Shown here: positions 10,125 through 28,630 of the stretch, in pieces
Position numbering within the stretch: the first letter of the stretch is position 1
Layout: each line of letters begins with the position of its first letter
NCBI RefSeq assembly: GCF_000023965.1
Contig: NC_013202.1
Coordinates: forward strand, 480,001 to 512,000
Direction of reading: 5' to 3'
Length of the DNA stretch: 32,000 bases
From: Halomicrobium mukohataei DSM 12286
GTDB taxonomy: Archaea; Halobacteriota; Halobacteria; Halobacteriales; Haloarculaceae
Notes under the pieces: model-generated
The model's input: only the letters and a program-made list of their open reading frames with translations
What the model was told of the DNA's origin: nothing
The model's database searches: none
Position numbers and translations under genes: made by a program

Positions 10125-10365
10125 TTCTACGACAGTTCACTCCGCCAGCGAAGCCTCTCGTCGTCGCTCTTCTAGCGAAGTCCCTGCCGTCGAGCAACAT
10201 CCAGCTATCGCTCGCGAAGTCGGTGGCGTGGAGGGGAAAAGTCCCCTCACCCTGTCATAGGTCCGTCCCACCTCGGGAGGCGGACACGGCTGTGATCGGA
10301 CGACGGCGATAAATGCTTTGCGGGGGTGGGGAACTGTTTAGTGTCGGCGCACGAATCTCGCCCGT

Positions 10366-11019
10366 ATGGAGGACGTGGACCGCGAAGCGATGCCGCGGGC
10401 GATCGTCGAGGAGTTTCTGGCACGCGAACGCGGGACGCGCGCGCTGCTGGACGACCTCGAGAAGTTGGCGATCGAGGGCCGGACCGAGGAGTTGCACGAT
10501 CGGATCGAGAACCTCGCCGAGAACGACGAGGCGGTCTTCTACACCGTCGCGTTCAGCCTCGCGGACTCGGTGCAGTTCTTCGGCGACGTGGAGGCCCAGC
10601 TCGACGTGACCGCGGCCGATCGGCTCCGGGATCTGGCCGAGACGTACCCGACGCTGGCAGAACCGTTCGCCGTCGTTCGAACGGAGCTGTCCGAAGACCG
10701 CAAGAACCCGGTGACGAACGTCAGCTACAGCGTCGCCTACCACCGTGGGATCGAGTCGCCGATCGTCACCTACCGCCCGCTGTCGGGCGGGCGAGAACTC
10801 TACGAGTCGCGAGCGACGCCGTCGGAAGTGCTGGGCACGGCCGCAGACCTCGTGGCGGCGACGACCGACGCGCTCGACGTGGCCCTGGAGAGCGATCACT
10901 CGGTCAACACGGAGGAGCTGAGCGAGCTGATCGACCGCCGAGAGCGACTGGAGACGGAGCTGTCGCGCCTGCGTGACGATCTCGACGAGCTCCGGCGGAC
11001 GCCGATCGACGGCGAGTAG
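10366..11019 (+). CDS. hypothetical acidic cytoplasmic protein with a C-terminal coiled-coil-like tail
   Basis: 217-aa ORF with a haloarchaeal acidic composition and high GC3. The competing 392-aa antisense ORF is Ser/Arg-rich junk. I recognised no family. Confidence 0.65.
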   Translation: MEDVDREAMPRAIVEEFLARERGTRALLDDLEKLAIEGRTEELHDRIENLAENDEAVFYTVAFSLADSVQFFGDVEAQLDVTAADRLRDLAETYPTLAEPFAVVRTELSEDRKNPVTNVSYSVAYHRGIESPIVTYRPLSGGRELYESRATPSEVLGTAADLVAATTDALDVALESDHSVNTEELSELIDRRERLETELSRLRDDLDELRRTPIDGE

Positions 11020-11074
11020 CGAGGCCACACCGGATGCGTTTATGTGTCCACGGACAGAAGCACGGAGCGAGCAC

Positions 11075-11374
11075 ATGGGACTGGACCGACTGGCCGAGCA
11101 GGTCGAGAAAGAACGGCGCGACCTCCAGATTCTCGAAGCCGTCATCGAACACGGTCCGATCGGGATCGTCCACCTCGCCGAGGAGGCCGAGGTCCCCGAA
11201 CACAAGGTGCGGTACTCGCTTCGGATGCTCGAAAACGACGAGCTCGTCCAGCCGACGCCAGAGGGCGCGGTTCCCGCCGACGACATCGCCGCGCGGATCG
11301 CGACGATGAACCAGGGGCTAGAGCGACTGCGCGACCGGACCGAGACGCTGAAGACGATTTTCGACGCGGAGTAA
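11075..11374 (+). CDS. small winged-helix DNA-binding protein (putative transcription regulator)
   Basis: MGLDRLAEQVEKERRDLQILEAVIEHGPIGIVHLAEEAEVPEHKVRYSLRMLENDELVQPTPEGA.. has a wHTH-like pattern. I set the start at ATG 11075, with TTTATG at 11039-11044 upstream. Confidence 0.65.
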   Translation: MGLDRLAEQVEKERRDLQILEAVIEHGPIGIVHLAEEAEVPEHKVRYSLRMLENDELVQPTPEGAVPADDIAARIATMNQGLERLRDRTETLKTIFDAE

Positions 11375-11445
11375 CACCGGCTGGACGCTTCGACAGCGAT
11401 ATACTCCCTCGCGAGAGCAGACCCATCGACCACGACGGCACCCAG

Positions 11446-12686: not shown

Positions 12687-12796
12687 GCCACCATCCGCGA
12701 GTCGCCACAGCGACTGGTCGACCCACTCTCGTGGGGCGACCCCGCTGTGTCGGCCGGTAAGCGAGCGTTACGCGCGCCGACGGAGAGAAACGACTC

Positions 12797-12805
12797 TATA
12801 ATTAT
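12797..12805 (+). promoter_or_regulatory. TATA box TATAATTAT for cetZ
   Basis: Centred 30 nt upstream of ATG 12831 and preceded by a purine-rich stretch GAGAGAAACGAC. This supports the internal start. Confidence 0.5.
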
Positions 12806-12830
12806 CCGGTCGTGGGCCAACGACCACCGC

Positions 12831-14012
12831 ATGAACCTCGCCGCAATCGGGTTCGGTAACGCGGGTGGCAAGATCGTCGACAGATTCCTCGCCTTCGAGG
12901 AGCGGTCTGGGCGGTCGCTCACGACAGAGGCGCTCGCGATCAACTCCGCGGAGATCGATCTGGCGAAGTTGGAGGTGCTCCCGCCGGACCGTCGGCTCAT
13001 CATCGGCCAGACCGACGAGCGGGTGAAGGGACGGGGCGTCGGTGCCGATCCGGAGCTGGGCTCGGAGATCGCTCGCCAGGACCTCACCGAGATCGAGCGC
13101 CAGCTAGACACCGTTCCGATCCACGAGACCGACGGCTTTCTCGTGGTCGCCGGGCTCGGCGGGGGAACCGGGAGCGGTGGCGCGCCGGAGCTGGCCGAGC
13201 GGCTCGGTCGGATCTACGAGGAACCGATCTACGGGCTGGGGGTGTTGCCAAGCGCCGACGAGGGCGGTCGTCCCTCGCTCAACGCCGCCCGCTCGCTCCA
13301 GGCCTTCGCCGACGCGACGGACAACCTCATGGTGTTCGACAACGACGCCTGGCGACAGACCCAGGGGTCGGTCGCGGCAGGGTACGACCGGACCAACCGA
13401 GAGATCGCGCGGCGGTTCGTCACGCTCCTGGCAGCCGGCGAACTCGACGGCTCGCAGGTGTCCGAGTCCGCGATGGACGCCAGCGACATCCGCCGGACGC
13501 TGGCGACCGGAGGACTCAGCACGATCGCGTTCAGCCAGGCAGACGTCGAGGCCGAGACGAAATCGAAGCAAGGACTGTTGGGCCGACTGCGATCCAACGG
13601 CGAGAGCCACACCGACGAGGGGGACCTGGCGAAGAAGATCCACGGGCTCGTCCGGAAGGCCGTCCAGTCTCGGCTCACCTGTCCGGCAGACGTCGCCTCC
13701 GCCGAGCGCGCCCTGGTCGTCGTCTCCGGCCCGCCACGCGAGGTCTCACAGAAGGGGCTCCAGCGGGCCCGCCAGTGGCTCGAACGCGAGACCGACAGCG
13801 TCGAGGTGCTGGCCGGCGACGACCCCCGGACCGACGCCGACGCGCTCTCGGTGGCCGTGTTGCTGTCGAACGTCACCGAGGTGCCACGCGTCGACGAGCT
13901 ACAGGAGCGGGCCGTCACGGCACAGGAAAACAGCCGGCAGCAAGCCGCCGAGCGCAGAGCGGAGATCGACGAGTTGCTCACCGACGAGGAGAACGAGCTC
14001 GACCCCCTCTAG
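12831..14012 (+). CDS. cetZ: CetZ-type tubulin/FtsZ-superfamily GTPase
   Basis: MNLAAIGFGNAGGKIVDRF.., the tubulin signature GLGGGTGSGGAP, and ..NLMVFDNDAW.. closely recall Haloferax CetZ1 (from memory). Length is 393 aa from ATG 12831. The upstream 28 codons of the ORF cover the TATA box. Confidence 0.88.
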   Translation: MNLAAIGFGNAGGKIVDRFLAFEERSGRSLTTEALAINSAEIDLAKLEVLPPDRRLIIGQTDERVKGRGVGADPELGSEIARQDLTEIERQLDTVPIHETDGFLVVAGLGGGTGSGGAPELAERLGRIYEEPIYGLGVLPSADEGGRPSLNAARSLQAFADATDNLMVFDNDAWRQTQGSVAAGYDRTNREIARRFVTLLAAGELDGSQVSESAMDASDIRRTLATGGLSTIAFSQADVEAETKSKQGLLGRLRSNGESHTDEGDLAKKIHGLVRKAVQSRLTCPADVASAERALVVVSGPPREVSQKGLQRARQWLERETDSVEVLAGDDPRTDADALSVAVLLSNVTEVPRVDELQERAVTAQENSRQQAAERRAEIDELLTDEENELDPL

Positions 14013-16025: not shown

Positions 16026-16682
16026 CTACCACGCCGACCAGGCGGTGGTCGACTCGTCGCGGACGTACAGTCGCTTGATGTCTTTCGCGAGGGCGCTGTC
16101 GCGGTCCTGGTCGTACTGTTCGCGGTCGTAGCCGTGGGCGTCGTCCCGGACGTGGAACCCCTCGACGGTGAACTCGTTGTCGCCGAACTCGTCGGTCGCG
16201 CCGACGGTGAACTCGTAGTCGCCGGGGACGTTGAGCTTGAAGCTCTCGGTGCTGTCGTGGCGGCCGTCTTTGGGGTGCATCGTCACGTCGACGGCGACGT
16301 TCCCGACCGCGCGGGTCCAGATCGTCTCGACGTCCTCGGCGGTCCCCTCGTCGACGCGGCCGCCCTCGTCGAGTTCGACCGCGGTGATTCGAACGGTCAT
16401 CAGGGCCTCCTCGGCGTCCAGCAGGAACTCTTCGCCCTTGGCCAGTTCCTCCTCGGCCGGCACGTCGACCTGTGCGCTGAACGACTCGCCGTCCTGTGAG
16501 ACGACGACGCGGCGCTGTACCTCGTCGTCGTCCGGGAGCTGTTCCTTGTGGGTGTGGTCACATTCCGTACAGCGAACCGTCACGTGGCTGCCGGGGCTGA
16601 GCACCTCGTGGACGGTCTCGAAGGCCGGCGAACACGCCGGGCACGGCAGGGCGAGGCGATCGCCCGGTGTCGCGTCTGTCAT
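16026..16682 (-). CDS. archaeal Zn-ribbon protein (I recall this family as COG1326 / the 'HVO_0476 family')
   Basis: MTDATPGDRLALPCPACSP..VTVRCTECDH.. is a C4 zinc ribbon followed by an acidic domain. Start at ATG 16682. It ends 1 nt before the pcm ATG, so an operon is likely. Confidence 0.82.
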   Translation of the reverse strand: MTDATPGDRLALPCPACSPAFETVHEVLSPGSHVTVRCTECDHTHKEQLPDDDEVQRRVVVSQDGESFSAQVDVPAEEELAKGEEFLLDAEEALMTVRITAVELDEGGRVDEGTAEDVETIWTRAVGNVAVDVTMHPKDGRHDSTESFKLNVPGDYEFTVGATDEFGDNEFTVEGFHVRDDAHGYDREQYDQDRDSALAKDIKRLYVRDESTTAWSAW

Positions 16683-16818
16683 AGACGAGCGTACTCGGGC
16701 CGAACGTAAAGGGGCGTCGTCCCGGCCGTCTGGCCGCCTGTGACTGCCGGCCGGGGACGCACAAAACGAGATCGAACCGTACAGAAGGGCCTTACAAACG
16801 GCGACCGACGACGGACGT

Positions 16819-17994
16819 ATGGCACCGATACGCCGCCGCCGAGCCCTCCAGCTGGCGGGCGGAAGCCTCAGCGCGCTCGTCGCCGGATGCGTCGGCGGAT
16901 CACCGTCCGCCGGTACGGACGAGCAGACCGACACACCGACCGACGAACCGACGGAGACGACGACCGACGGACGAACGGAGACGCCCACGTCCGCGACCGA
17001 AGTGACCGGGAGCGAGCAGGTCCGGTATCCGTCGGGCCCGTCAGAGCCCGACTGGGCGGGAGCGGACGCCGTCGGGCACGTCGCGCTGGCGGCCTCCCGA
17101 GAGCGGGCGCGGGCGCTGCTCGCGCCGTTCGAGCTCCCCGAAGCACGACGCGAGCCGGTGGTCGAGTTGCTCCGGGAGACCGACTTCGAGCGATCGCTGC
17201 TGGCGCTGGTCGAGACCGTCGGCCCGAACGGCTGCTACCGGACCGTCGAGGTCTCGAACCTCGCGCTGAGCGGCGACCGACTCGTCGGCGACGCGAGCGC
17301 GGTAGACGAGAGCGACGGCGAAACGGCCTGCACCGAGGCGCTGACTTACCCCGCGACGCTCGTGCGGGTCACCTTCGACGGCAGACCGCCGGAACGGGCG
17401 ACGTTCACGATCACGGACGGCTGGGGCGAGAGTGCCGACGTGACGGGGACAGTCGAGGATCGAATCGGCCCGGACCCCGACGATCTGGCCGGTCACGTCC
17501 GCCCGGACGACGACCCCGTCGTCCGAGAGCCGCTGTCCTGTGACCGCGAGGGGTTCCAGCGCCACGGCAGCTGGGTCGACGATCCACCGTGGGGGCTGGC
17601 CACCGACGACGACGGAGCGCCGACGTTCGCGCTCCGGGTCGACCGACTCGAAGCCGGCGTCGGTGAGACGGTCACGGTCACGATGACCAACGTCGGCGAC
17701 GGCGTCCTGAGCACCGGCAACCGCCACAAGTACGGCCTCCAGACCCAGACAGAATCGGGGTGGGAAGACGTTCGCGGCGCGACCGACGGCGACCCCTTGT
17801 CCTACACCGACGAGGCGATCGGCCACGCCCCCGGCGACGGCTTCGAGTGGACGCTGGAACTCACCGAGGAGGGTCTCGTCGCGGACCACGTCCACGCCGA
17901 CCGGCTGGTCGTCTGTCCCGACCTCGAACCCGGTCGCTACCGCTTCGTCTTCTGGGAGCCCGCCGTGGCCGTGGCGTTCGACCTCGTGGAGTAG
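16819..17994 (+). CDS. Tat-signal lipoprotein, function unknown
   Basis: MAPIRRRRALQLAGGSLSALVAGC has a twin-arginine motif plus the lipobox LVAGC. A Thr/Glu/Asp/Pro-rich linker follows, then beta-rich domains. Confidence 0.78.
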   Translation: MAPIRRRRALQLAGGSLSALVAGCVGGSPSAGTDEQTDTPTDEPTETTTDGRTETPTSATEVTGSEQVRYPSGPSEPDWAGADAVGHVALAASRERARALLAPFELPEARREPVVELLRETDFERSLLALVETVGPNGCYRTVEVSNLALSGDRLVGDASAVDESDGETACTEALTYPATLVRVTFDGRPPERATFTITDGWGESADVTGTVEDRIGPDPDDLAGHVRPDDDPVVREPLSCDREGFQRHGSWVDDPPWGLATDDDGAPTFALRVDRLEAGVGETVTVTMTNVGDGVLSTGNRHKYGLQTQTESGWEDVRGATDGDPLSYTDEAIGHAPGDGFEWTLELTEEGLVADHVHADRLVVCPDLEPGRYRFVFWEPAVAVAFDLVE

Positions 17995-21191: not shown

Positions 21192-22367
21192 TCACCGCGT
21201 GACGACCCGAGCGAGCGCCTCGGGATCGTCGACGACCGACAGCACCTTCGTATCGTCGTCCCGGACGAGACGCACCGTCCCAAAGTCGTTCGAGAAGAAC
21301 GTACTCGCGATTCCGGACCCGACCCGGACGTCTGCGATTTCGTGACGGGCGACGCTCCATTGCGGCGCGTCCAGTCTGCGGTCGTACGCGACAACCACGT
21401 CGCCGTAGACGCGATACTCGACCGCCCCGTACGCGAGACGCGCGACGGGAATCTCCAGGACCGCGCGGCCCGCGACGAGCGCGACGACGGTCGAGACGGC
21501 GGCGACGAGACCGAACCAGAGGCCGACGCCGACAGAGACGAGCGCGACGAGGAACCCGTACGGCGGGAGCAGCGCTAGGAGCACCCCGAGTCCGAGCGCG
21601 TGCAGGACGACGCCGCGATCGTCGGTCCCCACCACCGTGATCGGCTCACCGTCGGGGACCGTGATTGGGTCGTCCGCCTCGACCTCCGGCTGCGCACCGT
21701 CGTCGGTCGTGGACGTCACGTCGAGGACGTCTGCGACGAGCTTCGCCGCGACCACGACCGCGAGCGTCGCCGTGAGTCCGACGCCCGCCGAGTCGGCGCC
21801 GGCACCGGCGATCGGGAGCAGGAACCCCGCGATGACGACGGCCATCCACCGGCGCCTCGAGAACGTCGACAGCGCGGAGTGGTGCTCGTACCGCTTCGCA
21901 CGGACGAATTCGGACAGCGTCCCCGCGTGTCGGACGACGACGATCACCGCGCCGACAACGACGCCGGGGAGCACGAGTCCTGCGAGCGAGCCAGACGATC
22001 TCGCGTACCCCCACACCAGTATCGCGACGACCCCGAGTCCGAACAGGACCCAGCCGGCGTTCAAGGCGAACGGGAGGTTCCGGGGATAGATCGGCGGCAA
22101 CCAGTCCACGAGGGTCACGCTGCCGCGTTTCTCACGGAGGCGCTCCAGTGGCACCTGGATGCCGTAGAAGTCGTCGTCGACGGGCCGCGTCGCGAACAGT
22201 GCCTCGACTGACGAACGGGTGACGTACGCGACGGCCTCTATCCAGTAGAGCACGAGCACCGGGAGCAGTTCCCAGTCGAACGCGAAGACGCCGACGAGCG
22301 GCACGGCGTTCACCAAGAGAGCCAGTGCGACGGTCGAACGCCTGTGCGCCGGATTATCCGCCACCAT
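21192..22367 (-). CDS. multi-pass membrane protein: N-terminal DUF6498-like TM domain fused to a C-terminal 2-TM + bacterial-PH (YdbS/YdbT-like) module
   Basis: The N-terminus ..ALLVNAVPLVGVFAFDWELLPVLVLYWIEAV.. resembles DUF6498 (from memory). The C-terminus has two TM helices and then ..YRVYGDVVVAYDRRL...WSVARHEIADVRV.....STFFSNDFGTVRLV.. , a bPH_2-like pattern. Confidence 0.78.
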   Translation of the reverse strand: MVADNPAHRRSTVALALLVNAVPLVGVFAFDWELLPVLVLYWIEAVAYVTRSSVEALFATRPVDDDFYGIQVPLERLREKRGSVTLVDWLPPIYPRNLPFALNAGWVLFGLGVVAILVWGYARSSGSLAGLVLPGVVVGAVIVVVRHAGTLSEFVRAKRYEHHSALSTFSRRRWMAVVIAGFLLPIAGAGADSAGVGLTATLAVVVAAKLVADVLDVTSTTDDGAQPEVEADDPITVPDGEPITVVGTDDRGVVLHALGLGVLLALLPPYGFLVALVSVGVGLWFGLVAAVSTVVALVAGRAVLEIPVARLAYGAVEYRVYGDVVVAYDRRLDAPQWSVARHEIADVRVGSGIASTFFSNDFGTVRLVRDDDTKVLSVVDDPEALARVVTR

Positions 22368-22390
22368 GCGATAATATTCGTTTATTCAAT

Positions 22391-22398
22391 ATAATAAA
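22391..22398 (-). promoter_or_regulatory. TATA box TTTATTAT for the membrane-protein gene
   Basis: Centred about 27 nt upstream of ATG 22367, within the AT-rich stretch 22368-22402. Confidence 0.45.
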
Positions 22399-22538
22399 CT
22401 TACCGAGACAAGACTGCATCGGGCGCCGGACGTGACGGCTTGCCGGACGGCGAATCCGGTGCTGGCCCTGACGAACCGGCGGGACAGCGAAGCGGGAGTC
22501 GCCACGGTGGCGGCTACTCGCCCACAGCGTCGGAGGTG

Positions 22539-24548
22539 TCAGCAGAATCCTGCCTGTGTCGGGTAGGTGTCCGAGCTACAGATGTCCTTTGCGTCCGGTA
22601 GCGCGGAGATGGTGAGCGAACAGATCGCGCCACCCAGGACCGCACACGGCACCGTCCCGAGGCCGAGCGTCGTCAGCGAGAACGCGCCACAGAACGCGGC
22701 GACGCCGTACCCGCAGAGCCCGACGTCCAGCGATAGTCGGATGAACGCGACACAGGCGCCACAGTCGTAGTTCTCGTCGCCGATAGCCTCGAACACGCCG
22801 CTCCCGACGAGAGAGATCATCGACGAGTACCCGGTGATCCTGAGCTTCCACAGGGCCTTGATTTTGAAGTCGTCGATGAACTTGGTCGCGAGCGACTGGA
22901 AGGAGTTGATCGTGTTCGCGACGATCTTGCCACCCGTCACCGCGATCTCGGACGAGGACACGTCGGCGTACTCGATGGCTTCCGCCAGATAGTCGGCACT
23001 AACGTCCTGGATGCCGTCAGAGACGTCCTTCAGACCGTCGTAGATATCACCGATCCAGTCGCCCCAGGGGATGGTGGGGATCCAGTCGCCTTGCGTCTCG
23101 GGTTGGGTCGTCTCGGGCGCGTCGAACTCGTACGTCTCCGTCGAGAGGCCGGCGGCAGCCGTCGAGAGAGAGCCGACCTCAAGCGTGTCGTGACGGAACT
23201 GTTCGATGTTGCCGGCGTCGTTGCGCCACTGGTAGGTGTTCTTGCCGGCGACGACGTCGTCGGTGTCGTGGCGCTTCGTGACGCTGACCGTGCCCTCGTC
23301 ACCCGTTTCGAGGTCGGTGAGTTTGAACGTCACCGAATCGACCGGGTCGGTCGCCGTGTCGGAGGTGATCGTGTAGAGGCCGTCGGCGTCGTGTCGGATT
23401 CGTCCCTCCACCGCCGACGCGAGCTGGTCGTAGGCATCGAGACGCTCGAATTTGGCGGCCATCTGGAGTCTCGCCGAGGACTGCGCGCTCTCGTAGGCCA
23501 TGTAGTCGAACGACACGGTCATCCGCGCGATGCCGACCGACGTGACGTCGCCGAAGTACTGAATCCGTTCGGTCTCGCCGGCAGCGACGGTGACCGTCGG
23601 GTTCTTGTGGACTTCTTCCTCGTAGATGAACGCCTCCGTCGACTCGGTGCTGAACTCGACCGAGCGGTTCTCGGGGGCCGTACAGACCACGCGCTTGGAC
23701 TCGGGGACGATTTCGACGGTCGCGCCGCTCTCGTGTTCGATACGCTCGACGCGCCCGTCGTAGCGCGCGGTCGTCCCGCGCTGGGTCGAGTAGGCACTGA
23801 CGCTGCCGTCTTCGACGCTCGCGTGGGCGTGGTCGCTGTCCGCGTCGCCCGACACCTCGACGGTGACGCCCCGTCCATCTCCGGAGATCTCCATCTCGCC
23901 GGGGAGCGAGGCCGGCAGTGCGTCGTCGGGTTCGAGTTTCTGGTCGTCCCTGCGGACCCAGACCTGGTCGGAGGCGTCGAAGTACGTGAGTTCCCCCGCG
24001 TACGAGATGTCGGTTCGTCCATTGATGGTCCCGCGGACGGTGCGAGCGTTCGGCTTCTCGAGTTCGTCGTCGTCGGCTTCGACACGCCCGCTGGCGGAGA
24101 TGTCGACGTCGACGTGGCCCGGCGCGATGACGGTGAGTGTCTGCTGGGGGAACGCGTCGGGGTCGACGGAGTCGCCGTCGACGACGACCTCCGCCCCGCC
24201 GGAGACGTCGAGTTCGGTGAACTCACCGGAGAAATCGTATGAGTGTGTCTCCCCCTCGATCGTGGCGGTGGCCGCGCCAGCGTCGAGGGATTCGCTCGGA
24301 GCGTCGGTCGCGGAGACGAGTCCGGTGACGGAGAACGTGTAACTGGCCTCACCGCTCGCACGGATGGAGACGCTTCGCGTGACCTCACTGGCAGCGAGCG
24401 AGGGTGTGCCGCGTTCGGTGATGTCGTTGAGACTCGCGTCGGACGCGGCACCAGCCGTGGAAGCACCGATTGCGGTCGCACCGGCGACAGCAATCCCTCG
24501 GAGGACTTCGCGTCGAGACTTGTTCTGATTGTTGTCGTCTGACGACAT
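22539..24548 (-). CDS. Tat-secreted 669-aa protein with a halocin C8-like Cys-rich hydrophobic C-terminal domain (candidate pro-halocin)
   Basis: The twin-arginine signal is NKSRREVLRGIAVAGATAIGASTAGAAS. The middle is acidic and beta-rich. The last ~75 aa (..YDCGACVAFIRLSLDVGLCGYGVAAFCGAFSLTTLGLGTVPCAVLGGAICSLTISALPDAKDICSSDTYPTQAGFC) hold 8 Cys. The ORF call is solid. The function is inferred. Confidence 0.85.
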   Translation of the reverse strand: MSSDDNNQNKSRREVLRGIAVAGATAIGASTAGAASDASLNDITERGTPSLAASEVTRSVSIRASGEASYTFSVTGLVSATDAPSESLDAGAATATIEGETHSYDFSGEFTELDVSGGAEVVVDGDSVDPDAFPQQTLTVIAPGHVDVDISASGRVEADDDELEKPNARTVRGTINGRTDISYAGELTYFDASDQVWVRRDDQKLEPDDALPASLPGEMEISGDGRGVTVEVSGDADSDHAHASVEDGSVSAYSTQRGTTARYDGRVERIEHESGATVEIVPESKRVVCTAPENRSVEFSTESTEAFIYEEEVHKNPTVTVAAGETERIQYFGDVTSVGIARMTVSFDYMAYESAQSSARLQMAAKFERLDAYDQLASAVEGRIRHDADGLYTITSDTATDPVDSVTFKLTDLETGDEGTVSVTKRHDTDDVVAGKNTYQWRNDAGNIEQFRHDTLEVGSLSTAAAGLSTETYEFDAPETTQPETQGDWIPTIPWGDWIGDIYDGLKDVSDGIQDVSADYLAEAIEYADVSSSEIAVTGGKIVANTINSFQSLATKFIDDFKIKALWKLRITGYSSMISLVGSGVFEAIGDENYDCGACVAFIRLSLDVGLCGYGVAAFCGAFSLTTLGLGTVPCAVLGGAICSLTISALPDAKDICSSDTYPTQAGFC

Positions 24549-24570
24549 ACAATACCAACTTTTTCCACTG

Positions 24571-24580
24571 GATAATATAA
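24571..24580 (-). promoter_or_regulatory. TATA box TTATATTATC for the halocin-like gene
   Basis: Centred 28 nt upstream of ATG 24548 and bracketed by AATACCAA (24551-24558) and TTGGTATT (24582-24589). Confidence 0.5.
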
Positions 24581-24676
24581 TTTGGTATTAATATTCCAAT
24601 AAGAATAATTAATCGGGCAGGACGCCAGCGGGTGACGCCCCTCCGAGGACCGGTTGTCAGCACCGCCTCCGAACGG

Positions 24677-27225: not shown

Positions 27226-28059
27226 TCAGCGTGTGAGCTTCGCCTCGTGGTTCTCGTCGAGTTCGCGCAGTCGGTCGCCACACGAGCCACACTCCGCGGC
27301 GATCACCTCGTGGAGCCCACAGCAGGACTCGACGGTGTCTGCCGTCGTCGTGATCTGGCCGCCACACGCGGGACAGTCGTCCCCCAGCGTCCGTAGTTCC
27401 TCGCGGATGGTCGCGCGCTGTTCGACCGGCACGTCGGTCCAGCGGTCGGTCCACGCTGCCATCGCCGCGTCGGTCGCCACGTCCGCGAGCAGCGCGGCCT
27501 CGCTTGGCCACTTGCGAATCCGGTTGTCGATCTCGATGGCCGGGTAGTCGCGGTCCGTCGTCGCGACCGAATCGGGAGCGGCGTCGAACAGGGTCGCCAG
27601 CGTCGCCGGTTCCCGCAGCGAGTCGCGGTTGGCCTCGACGTGCTCGTCTCGCAGCGCCGCAAAGTCCTCGGTGAAGCGGTCGGTCCCGCCGTCACGAGCG
27701 ACGACGCCCTCGTCGGCGAGGAACCGTTCGGGGTCGACGGCGTTCTCGCGGTGCTGCTCGATCTTCTGGATCGTCTCCCACTCCTCGTCGTCCGCCTCGT
27801 GGTCGTCGAAGCGCGCGCGGATCGACTCGGGGAGGTACCGCTTGGTCAGCGTCGGGGTCCCGGGGACGAGATAGCCACGCAGGTAGATCGACACCAGCGA
27901 GAGGGCCAAGACCGCGACGCCGGCCAGCGGGACGACGACGCCGACGAGTGTGCTCGCCACGGCGGCGATGACGACGTTGACGGCGGTACAGGGGACACAG
28001 CGGTTCGGACCGGTGTACTCCGGCCGGCGGACGCGCTCGACCACGGAGAACTCTGTCAT
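27226..28059 (-). CDS. hypothetical membrane protein with a C-terminal Cys-rich Zn-ribbon-like motif
   Basis: Two N-terminal TM helices, an acidic middle, and a C-terminal ..CPACGG..SCCG..CGSCG.. . Confidence 0.72.
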   Translation of the reverse strand: MTEFSVVERVRRPEYTGPNRCVPCTAVNVVIAAVASTLVGVVVPLAGVAVLALSLVSIYLRGYLVPGTPTLTKRYLPESIRARFDDHEADDEEWETIQKIEQHRENAVDPERFLADEGVVARDGGTDRFTEDFAALRDEHVEANRDSLREPATLATLFDAAPDSVATTDRDYPAIEIDNRIRKWPSEAALLADVATDAAMAAWTDRWTDVPVEQRATIREELRTLGDDCPACGGQITTTADTVESCCGLHEVIAAECGSCGDRLRELDENHEAKLTR

Positions 28060-28099: not shown

Positions 28100-28630
28100 T
28101 CACCGCACGAGTCGGACGACACACTCGTCGGCGAGAGAATCCTCGTGACCGTCGACGTTGACGTGTGCGCCGAGGGCGTACTCGCCGGGATCGGCCGGCT
28201 CCCACTCGCGCTCTGTCACCCGGAATCGTCCGCTCCACTCGCCGGCAAACTGCTTGCGTTCGCCCCGCTCGAAGTGGAGTTTGCCCTCCTCGTCGGGCGG
28301 GTCGTACTGGTCGACGTGGGACGCTTCAGTGAGGCCCTCGACCGTCCAGGCCCACAGCACCGGGGACCGCGTCGTCAGCGTGATCGGGATCGGCAGCGCG
28401 TTTTTCATCGTCACGCGAAAGGGGATGGCACTCCCGAGTTCGTACTCGGCCTGGGGCGTCTCGATCGACAGTGAGATCGCCCAGCGGCGGATCGCCCTGG
28501 GGACGAGCCACCGGCTCAACAGGCCGCTGTTGACCGAGCGAGCCGACTGTGGTCGGTACTCGTCGTCATCGTCGTCCGGAGTAAAGGGGTCCACGTCGTC
28601 TGGCGGTCCCCCACCGAGCAGTCCGCGCAT
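28100..28630 (-). CDS. hypothetical protein with a probable Ig-like beta-sandwich
   Basis: 176-aa acidic ORF with high GC3. A T5 box lies 27-31 nt upstream of the ATG. I recognised no family. Confidence 0.65.
   Translation of the reverse strand: MRGLLGGGPPDDVDPFTPDDDDDEYRPQSARSVNSGLLSRWLVPRAIRRWAISLSIETPQAEYELGSAIPFRVTMKNALPIPITLTTRSPVLWAWTVEGLTEASHVDQYDPPDEEGKLHFERGERKQFAGEWSGRFRVTEREWEPADPGEYALGAHVNVDGHEDSLADECVVRLVR

Follow-up and report, generated by a model that had tools for sequence, protein, structure and literature searches.

Halocin C8 is the best-studied antimicrobial peptide of the archaea, and we know of no description of its target, its processing protease or its structure. A long gene in the chromosome of Halomicrobium mukohataei DSM 12286 raises the question of whether the precursor of this peptide (ProC8) has relatives of much greater size. 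We analyzed a stretch of 32,000 nucleotides (NC_013202.1, positions 480,001 to 512,000 of the forward strand), called the window below; all coordinates refer to it. The gene, here the putative toxin gene, is a real open reading frame (ORF) at positions 22539–24548 of the minus strand, with an ATG start in the ORF list, 669 codons and a stop codon at 22539–22541. Its product is 99% identical to a "hypothetical protein" of Halomicrobium katesii. A preliminary description of the locus had claimed a 669-aa ORF with a twin-arginine (Tat) signal, and the coordinates, strand, length and SRREVL motif were all found in our analysis. The best overall explanation, which we regard as probable though far from certain, is that the gene encodes a member of a long-form ProC8 lineage that is processed to an antagonistic peptide.

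Two regions of the protein resemble the two functional parts of ProC8, the halocin itself (HalC8) and the immunity domain (HalI):

22542..22778, minus strand: HalC8-like, Cys-rich hydrophobic domain, residues 591-669, with 8 Cys (TIGR04449 match below the cutoff, and hhalign)
23175..23477, minus strand: HalI-like domain (Hac8_like_N, PF22862-like), residues 358-458 (hhalign; a helix-loop-helix and a five-stranded sheet are predicted)

The cysteines of the protein are located at residues 289, 596, 599, 612, 620, 635, 643, 657 and 669, exactly the nine positions given earlier, and the tail opens with ..DCGAC and closes the C-terminus with ..AGFC. Eight of them lie in the last 79 residues (binomial P ~1e-6, given 0.96% Cys in 13 other genes of the window). 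The tail is also hydrophobic, as had been stated: its grand average of hydropathy (GRAVY) is 0.77, and the 19-residue hydropathy stays at 1.2–1.8 across residues 596-650. These properties are close to those of HalC8 in isoelectric point (4.05 vs. 4.14), GRAVY (0.77 vs. 0.89) and mass (~7.9 kDa vs. 7.4 kDa). The facts on HalC8 that the preliminary description had given were matched by the database sequence of ProC8 from Natrinema altunense AJ2, which has 283 aa, starts with MKEDNN.. and ends in a C-terminal 76-aa peptide with 10 Cys (DIDITGCSAC...NRAGLC).

Comparison with the curated NCBIfam model TIGR04449 (cutoff 24 bits) gave 15.3 bits for the whole window protein and 18.4 bits for the tail alone (E 0.003, model positions 1-65 of 69). 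The same model matched 22 of 30 tails of the homologous proteins described below (12/17 in the close and 10/13 in the divergent subgroup; best E 1.6e-6), nearly end to end, and no other family recurred. One full-length homolog of the same architecture, P0031, which is 38% identical to the window protein (E 3e-145), just reached the curated cutoff with 24.1 bits.

For profile-profile comparison, a set of nine genuine HalC8 domains was taken from annotated precursors of Haloferax, Halobacterium, Haloterrigena and Natrinema by tblastn and a genome scan; the HalC8 peptide, used as a query, retrieved a "halocin C8-like domain-containing protein" of Natrinema gari. Against a single HalC8 sequence hhalign was uninformative (0.5% probability), so that the nine-domain alignment was needed. 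With this alignment the tails of the close subgroup gave a probability of 50% (E 1.6e-4, score 26) and those of the divergent subgroup 94.5% (E 8e-8, score 41). In contrast, 100 column shuffles of the HalC8 alignment scored 12 +/- 3 (maximum 24) and the reversed alignment 14, so that none of the 100 shuffles reached the real values. The cysteines fall largely into the HalC8 register: C596, C599, C620, C635, C643 and C657 correspond to C1, C2, C5, C6, C7 and C9 of HalC8, C612 lies one position after C4, and C669, like C10, is the last residue of its protein. Thus the HalC8-like tail proposed earlier is related to the halocin, although remotely: at the level of the family the sequence comparisons support a remote HalC8 relative, while the window protein itself remains below the threshold.

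The second region was absent from the preliminary description. Residues 345-470 of the family, aligned by hhalign with the HalI domains of seven canonical precursors, gave a probability of 96.4% (E 1.1e-9, 101 columns) and a score of 59.4, against 11.9 +/- 2.3 (maximum 24.4) for shuffled alignments. PF22862, which recognizes real ProC8 with E 1.7e-48 as a positive control, produced collinear matches below the threshold in the divergent members P0031 (366-457) and P0040 (368-465) and, with a best E of 1.1e-4, in six of a set of 19 members. When a purpose-built HalI hidden Markov model (HMM) was run against all six-frame ORFs of at least 40 aa in the window, the 669-aa ORF ranked first (E 0.004). 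AlphaFold2 predicted helices at 353-367 and 371-379 followed by five strands, and the best-conserved HalI-like residues (S358, L361, Q362, A365, E368 and R369) fall in the helix-loop-helix, which may be equivalent to the motif in a title by Mei et al. cited in PMC11509114. On these comparisons residues 358-458 are homologous to HalI, and an immunity role for them is proposed by analogy with ProC8.

If the resemblance had arisen by chance or convergence, the tail would be an unrelated hydrophobic segment rich in Cys, Gly and Ala, with no tie to halocins. The score of the window protein under the TIGR04449 cutoff would fit this, as would the failure of HMMER with the tail profile to reach HalC8, and biased composition can inflate scores. 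However, the shuffled and reversed controls never came near the real profile-profile scores, one family member clears the curated cutoff, and two independent domains both have their counterpart in one known precursor, in an unchanged order, which makes chance resemblance very unlikely. As plain HMMER does not bridge the gap, we conclude that the homology is remote and supported at the level of the family, and we give the chance explanation very little credence.

The family to which the protein belongs comprises about 40 haloarchaeal sequences, and each named member is called a "hypothetical protein". An indexed homolog search with the window protein returned about 20 full-length homologs, and the tail profile, run exhaustively with HMMER, revealed 27 cluster representatives and nothing outside the family. 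Nearly all of these are 600-720 aa long and end in the tail; a word-indexed search with the same profile gave a single fragment only. The named members belong to Halomicrobium, Haloferax (one on a plasmid), Halosimplex, Halocatena and Halobaculum, and all 41 tails (41/41) are of one HalC8-like type. In an alignment of 32 sequences, reaching down to 26% identity, five cysteines never vary (C596, C599, C620, C635 and C669), and C657 reaches a conservation of at least 90%. It should be mentioned that Haloferax larsenii (L009/L018, P0011; loci and proteins are cited by such numbers where they have to be told apart) has both a canonical HalC8-like precursor of 310 aa and a member of the long-form family. 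For this species a table in PMC11509114 lists several reported halocins of 13-14 kDa whose sequence is unknown.

The remaining two cysteines behave as a pair. C612 (nt 22711-22713) and C643 (nt 22618-22620) are both kept in 27 of 41 tails (in three of these the first Cys is shifted by 1-2 positions), both are lost in 13, and in no tail is a single one lost. The number of tail cysteines is either 8 or, in one subclade, 6, so that the ten-Cys framework of HalC8 is not kept, and it is never odd except in one fragment, which is truncated and has lost the start of the domain. The even counts and the coordinated loss suggest disulfide bonds for all cysteines of the tail, with C612 linked to C643; the predicted bond corresponds to C4-C7 of HalC8. 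The 13 sequences without this pair look like one clade, and their co-loss may be a single evolutionary event.

Upstream of and between the two halocin-related regions, the precursor contains further parts:

24441..24548, minus strand: Tat signal peptide, residues 1-36 (SRREVLRGIAVAGATAIGASTAGAAS), SRREVL followed by a hydrophobic stretch (matches to TAT profiles)
23499..24386, minus strand: four tandem all-beta repeats of ~78 aa each, residues 55-135, 136-212, 213-292 and 293-350 (internal hhalign and AlphaFold2)
23064..23174, minus strand: linker, residues 459-495, poorly conserved and probably disordered (pLDDT <50 over 478-503)
22779..23063, minus strand: acidic helical region, residues 496-590, including FKIKALWKLRI at 561-571 (helices predicted at 498-510, 518-527, 547-559 and 563-568)

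Thus the order of elements in the window protein is Tat signal, four beta repeats, HalI-like domain, linker, helical region and HalC8-like domain. In the signal peptide R12 and R13 are nearly invariant among 19 homologs, and TAT profiles match weakly (TIGR02811 with E 0.006 in the window protein; PF10518 in 7/19 members). The relationship of the repeats was revealed by internal hhalign (repeat 1 vs. 2, 98.8%, E 5e-17; 1 vs. 3, 93.8%; 2 vs. 3, 92.9%; 2 vs. 4, 77%), and in the AlphaFold2 model the repeat module consists of strands only, with pLDDT ~84-90. The helical region carries the motifs GKIV.N and LWK.R.TGY in the family consensus. The preliminary description, in which the repeats were not recognized, had supposed that the N-terminal part may do more than provide immunity; the predicted architecture agrees with this, since it includes, besides the HalI-like domain at 358-458, about 300 aa of beta repeats absent from ProC8.

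The repeat module has no Pfam family, and a Pfam search with the whole window protein gave nothing useful. Foldseek searches with the full model against the PDB and viral structures, and with the repeat module alone against the PDB, returned nothing significant (in the PDB, no match at E <= 1e-3); sequence searches of the PDB with the toxin and with the product of the downstream gene described below gave no match. An impression from the top non-significant Foldseek matches that the repeats might be membrane beta-barrels was gone once the module was modelled alone. A self-cleaving protease was also considered, as H102, D124, S153 and C289 did not seem to vary among 19 sequences. With 32 sequences the only invariant residues of the module were Gly, Val, Tyr, Thr and Leu together with S153, a pattern that looks structural rather than catalytic, and this candidate was rejected.

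The same architecture could belong to an uncleaved surface protein exported by the Tat pathway, with the tail serving as a C-tail anchor, a role in adhesion, recognition or the envelope, and the downstream membrane protein as its partner. Repeat ectodomains are typical of surface proteins, and the hydrophobic helices of the tail (594-627 and 632-648) are long enough to span the membrane or dip into it. A simple anchor, however, needs hydrophobicity only, whereas this tail has five invariant cysteines and is as conserved as the globular domains: its mean pairwise identity is 0.36, compared with 0.36-0.40 in the globular parts and 0.26 in the linker, where it is lowest among the parts beyond residue 54. 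An NCBIfam scan of the whole protein listed no archaeal sorting signal such as PGF-CTERM, and the HalI-like and HalC8-like domains are collinear with those of a precursor that is known to be cleaved. We therefore regard an uncleaved surface protein as unlikely, a judgement to which the neighbouring gene, likewise missing from the preliminary description, also contributes:

21192..22367, minus strand: partner gene for a 391-aa multi-pass membrane protein, a candidate immunity or accessory factor (PF20108, E 4.8e-14)

The partner protein has an N-terminal DUF6498 region, a conserved C-terminal soluble domain (EYRVY...PQW) and about 8 hydrophobic segments. In the window its gene lies 171 nt 3' of the toxin gene on the same strand. 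We compared eight independent toxin loci, all inspected from the toxin side: the window, Halosimplex litoreum, a Haloferax plasmid and five metagenome contigs. A homolog of the partner is located directly 3' on the same strand in 8/8 of them (phmmer E 3e-75 to 3.5e-22), at a distance of 42 to 188 nt, and the other neighbours differ in all eight. Large secreted S8 peptidases were found beside the cassette in two of the eight loci, namely L001:11892-16127 (1411 aa, with PKD domains) and L021:1601-4885 (1094 aa, with a dockerin and an adjoining gene with a weak cohesin match); they could be processing proteases or a coincidence, and their position is suggestive at most.

Several loci throw light on the relation between the two genes. 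Tandem paralogous DUF6498 partners follow a single toxin gene at L021:7325-9866 and L031:2682-4755. Comparison of L026:3295-3916 with L027:1901-3916 (98% identical) revealed two internal deletions, together ~1.4 kb, that destroy the toxin gene of L026 and leave the partner intact. At L072:1-4528 and L045:437-3328 the partner is followed by a 5'-truncated toxin copy without a signal peptide, and in L072 by a second partner, an arrangement that looks like a remnant or a tandem cassette. In L034, L035 and L039 partner-like genes were present with no toxin gene detected in the 1.5-4 kb upstream that were examined. The linkage, the duplication and the retention of the partner beside a decayed toxin gene form a pattern characteristic of toxin-immunity pairs and together suggest that the partner is an immunity factor. 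Such decayed toxin genes beside kept or duplicated partners also fit a toxin-immunity pair better than an uncleaved surface protein, in favour of which it can be said that most DUF6498 proteins are not encoded beside a toxin gene.

Linked partners seem to be a minority within a larger family. About 70 loci (L028-L102) carry widespread longer DUF6498 paralogs, with ORFs mostly of 450-520 aa, that could represent an ancestral housekeeping form. DUF6498 as a general immunity family was ruled out, since most homologs are not linked to a toxin gene. It follows that the linked partner is a specialized branch of a wider membrane-protein family. We also rejected the partner as a CPBP-type protease or immunity protein, as it has no invariant His or Glu, and a literature search for DUF6498 found no mention of it.

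The long repeats, the toxin-like domain at the C-terminus and a gene immediately 3' would also be expected of a surface-displayed, contact-dependent toxin. In such a toxin the HalC8-like domain would be held out to neighbouring cells on a stalk of repeats instead of being set free as a diffusible halocin, and cognate immunity would come from the downstream gene. The tandem partner duplicates and the partner-like genes without a nearby toxin gene are in line with this, and according to a preprint (10.64898/2026.07.27.741052, citing Makarova et al., 2019) some RHS-type polymorphic toxins end in a HalC8 domain. The hallmark of polymorphic toxins, the swapping of C-terminal toxin domains, is nevertheless lacking here, given the single tail type of the family. 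Pfam revealed no RHS/YD or other known delivery repeats, apart from a lone RHS_repeat match with E 0.063 in one member, and the HalI-like pro-domain argues for processing like that of ProC8. Contact-dependent delivery thus appears to us quite improbable.

A number of observations weigh against a long-form halocin precursor. Concerning the protein: (i) the window protein is under both curated thresholds (15-18 against 24 bits for TIGR04449; no match for PF22862); (ii) exhaustive HMMER with the tail profile reached family members only and not canonical HalC8, and a small purpose-built HalC8 HMM gave no match to the window tail; (iii) C3 and C8 of HalC8 have no counterpart in the tail, C8 being located in a 4-residue segment that is absent here. 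Concerning the locus: (iv) about 70 of 80 DUF6498 homolog loci from hypersaline metagenomes have no adjacent toxin gene; (v) canonical HalC8 loci lack a DUF6498 gene; and (vi) halU, halR and the ABC transporter genes halT1-3, which surround halC8 in Natrinema, are absent at the window locus. The preliminary description had proposed several checks on the tail. The profile comparison with HalC8 returned a remote similarity that no shuffled control equalled; the structure prediction was run with AlphaFold2, and its confidence for the tail is low.

Sequences that may serve expression were revealed in front of both genes:

24549..24618, minus strand: probable promoter of a leaderless transcript, 27% GC, with a TATA-like box TTATATTA ~25-32 nt before the ATG; the promoter function is deduced from the sequence
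22368..22405, minus strand: possible promoter of the partner gene, AT-rich, with a TATA-like element TTTATTATA ~30 nt before the partner ATG, likewise a deduction only

We compared window positions 24549-24618 with the corresponding regions of L001, L002, L003, L005, L019, L021 and L022. The 70 nt 5' of all 8 toxin genes contain 13-33% GC, in genomes of ~60-66% GC, and a TATA-like box 25-32 nt before the ATG. These AT-rich, TATA-bearing regions would fit a promoter, strong or regulated, that gives rise to a leaderless transcript. Some partner genes, that of the window among them, are preceded by a TATA-like element of their own, and others are not. Positions 24549-24618 also hold near-palindromic AATATT/AATTATT elements that could be an operator.

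The toxin gene is located in the core chromosome of Halomicrobium, with genes for RNA polymerase subunits, CetZ, GAPDH and PGK in the window; its neighbours encode the DUF6498 protein, an APH-family kinase, a metallophosphoesterase, GAPDH and PGK. The preliminary description had also pointed to an unusual composition of the 3' third of the gene. The Lys-rich patch FKIKALWKLRI is indeed present at residues 561-571. The low GC content amounts to a modest dip and no clear compositional island: the 3' third averages ~62% against ~66% in the rest, a stretch of ~200 nt (codons 537-603) falls to 58%, and the last 200 nt have 66%. Elsewhere in the window, a CPxCG-related zinc-finger domain protein (16026-16988, minus strand; PF19769, E 1e-54) is encoded near the CetZ tubulin-like gene (12747-14012). 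Sizeable ORFs without a Pfam match were found at 10255-11433 (minus), 16819-17994 (plus), 27226-28059 (minus) and 28100-28630 (minus), some of which may be spurious in this GC-rich genome.

Comparison of the window protein with halocin C8 and ProC8 of Natrinema sp. AS7092 and N. altunense (UniProt P83716; TIGR04449 and PF22862) revealed that they share: (i) a Tat signal; (ii) a HalI or HalI-like domain before a C-terminal, hydrophobic, acidic and Cys-rich domain of ~76-80 aa that ends the protein; (iii) a common Cys framework with a C-x2-C start and an F.CG...G..C.......C core; and (iv) a haloarchaeal host. The window protein differs in its length (669 vs. 283 aa, 2.4 times longer), in the addition of ~300 aa of beta repeats after the signal and ~95 aa of helical region before the tail, in having 8 Cys instead of 10, in scoring below the curated thresholds, and in the DUF6498 gene that is always found 3' in the long-form family. 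Shorter "halocin C8-like domain-containing" precursors, such as those of Haloferax volcanii pHV4 (WP_004043226), Halobacterium salinarum and Haloferax larsenii, follow the same two-domain logic. Unlike the long form, these canonical proteins have ~300 aa and 10 Cys, pass both curated models and have no DUF6498 neighbour.

More distant parallels exist as well. HalC8 domains fused to RHS/YD polymorphic-toxin bodies were listed for Halorussus and Nitrolancea (Makarova et al., 2019, as cited in preprint 10.64898/2026.07.27.741052), and there too a large secreted protein with repeats ends in a HalC8-type domain. Therefore a big protein ending in HalC8 is not new in principle. The long form differs from these fusions in its new ~78-aa beta module, in the retention of a HalI-like domain and in a tail type that is fixed across the family. 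Leaving aside the listing of Makarova et al. (2019), the long-form architecture and its linkage to DUF6498 appear to be undescribed. The order of the two genes recalls class II bacteriocin operons, where a gene for a hydrophobic peptide toxin is followed by one for a multi-pass membrane protein; no sequence relationship exists, and an immunity role would be assigned here by analogy. HmHapP (HFX_0892) of Haloferax mediterranei is a secreted precursor from which extracellular halolysins are needed to release the antagonistic peptide (PMC12893001). Its active part is N-terminal, helical and unrelated in sequence to the long form, so the likeness consists in a possible proteolytic route.

From these data we propose the following scheme for a long-form halocin precursor. 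The folded precursor would be exported via the Tat pathway, and its hydrophobic tail would be kept masked by the HalI-like domain. A protease, which could be an extracellular enzyme of the halolysin type by analogy with HmHapP (PMC12893001), would then cut a few residues before C596. Since residue 1 of HalC8 aligns with G590, the released disulfide-bonded peptide is predicted to have 79-80 aa and a mass of ~7.9 kDa. Like HalC8, whose action on the envelopes of competitors has been reported (as summarized in preprint 10.64898/2026.07.27.741052), it would attack the envelope or membrane of competing haloarchaea. Protection of the producer might come from the HalI-like part after its release, from the DUF6498 partner or from the two together, and the repeat module may be a solubilizing stalk or a target-binding part.

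A bolder version of this scheme would make the cassette a modular, colicin-like archaeocin in which the repeats bind the target surface, the HalI-like domain masks the toxin in cis, and the partner is a resistant paralog of a DUF6498 membrane protein, widespread in haloarchaea, that serves the HalC8-like peptide as receptor or target. We consider this version speculative and hold little expectation that it is correct; if true, it would reveal the cellular target of the halocin C8 family.

The finding of a long-form lineage has several implications for the halocin C8 family. In the table of a 2026 census that required the curated HalC8 model, the genus Halosimplex and the accessions WP_330632468 and WP_390210934 are absent, and Haloferax larsenii is represented by its canonical protein only. 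As the members are named "hypothetical protein" and those looked up are missing from the census, the halocin-type weaponry of haloarchaea is undercounted. The coordinated loss of C612 and C643 provides a testable prediction for one disulfide of the HalC8 fold. The design of ProC8, with a Tat signal, HalI and halocin, would also extend to far larger proteins that carry an extra repeat module, and the strictly linked gene offers a concrete membrane protein that may be a second immunity factor or be related to the target.

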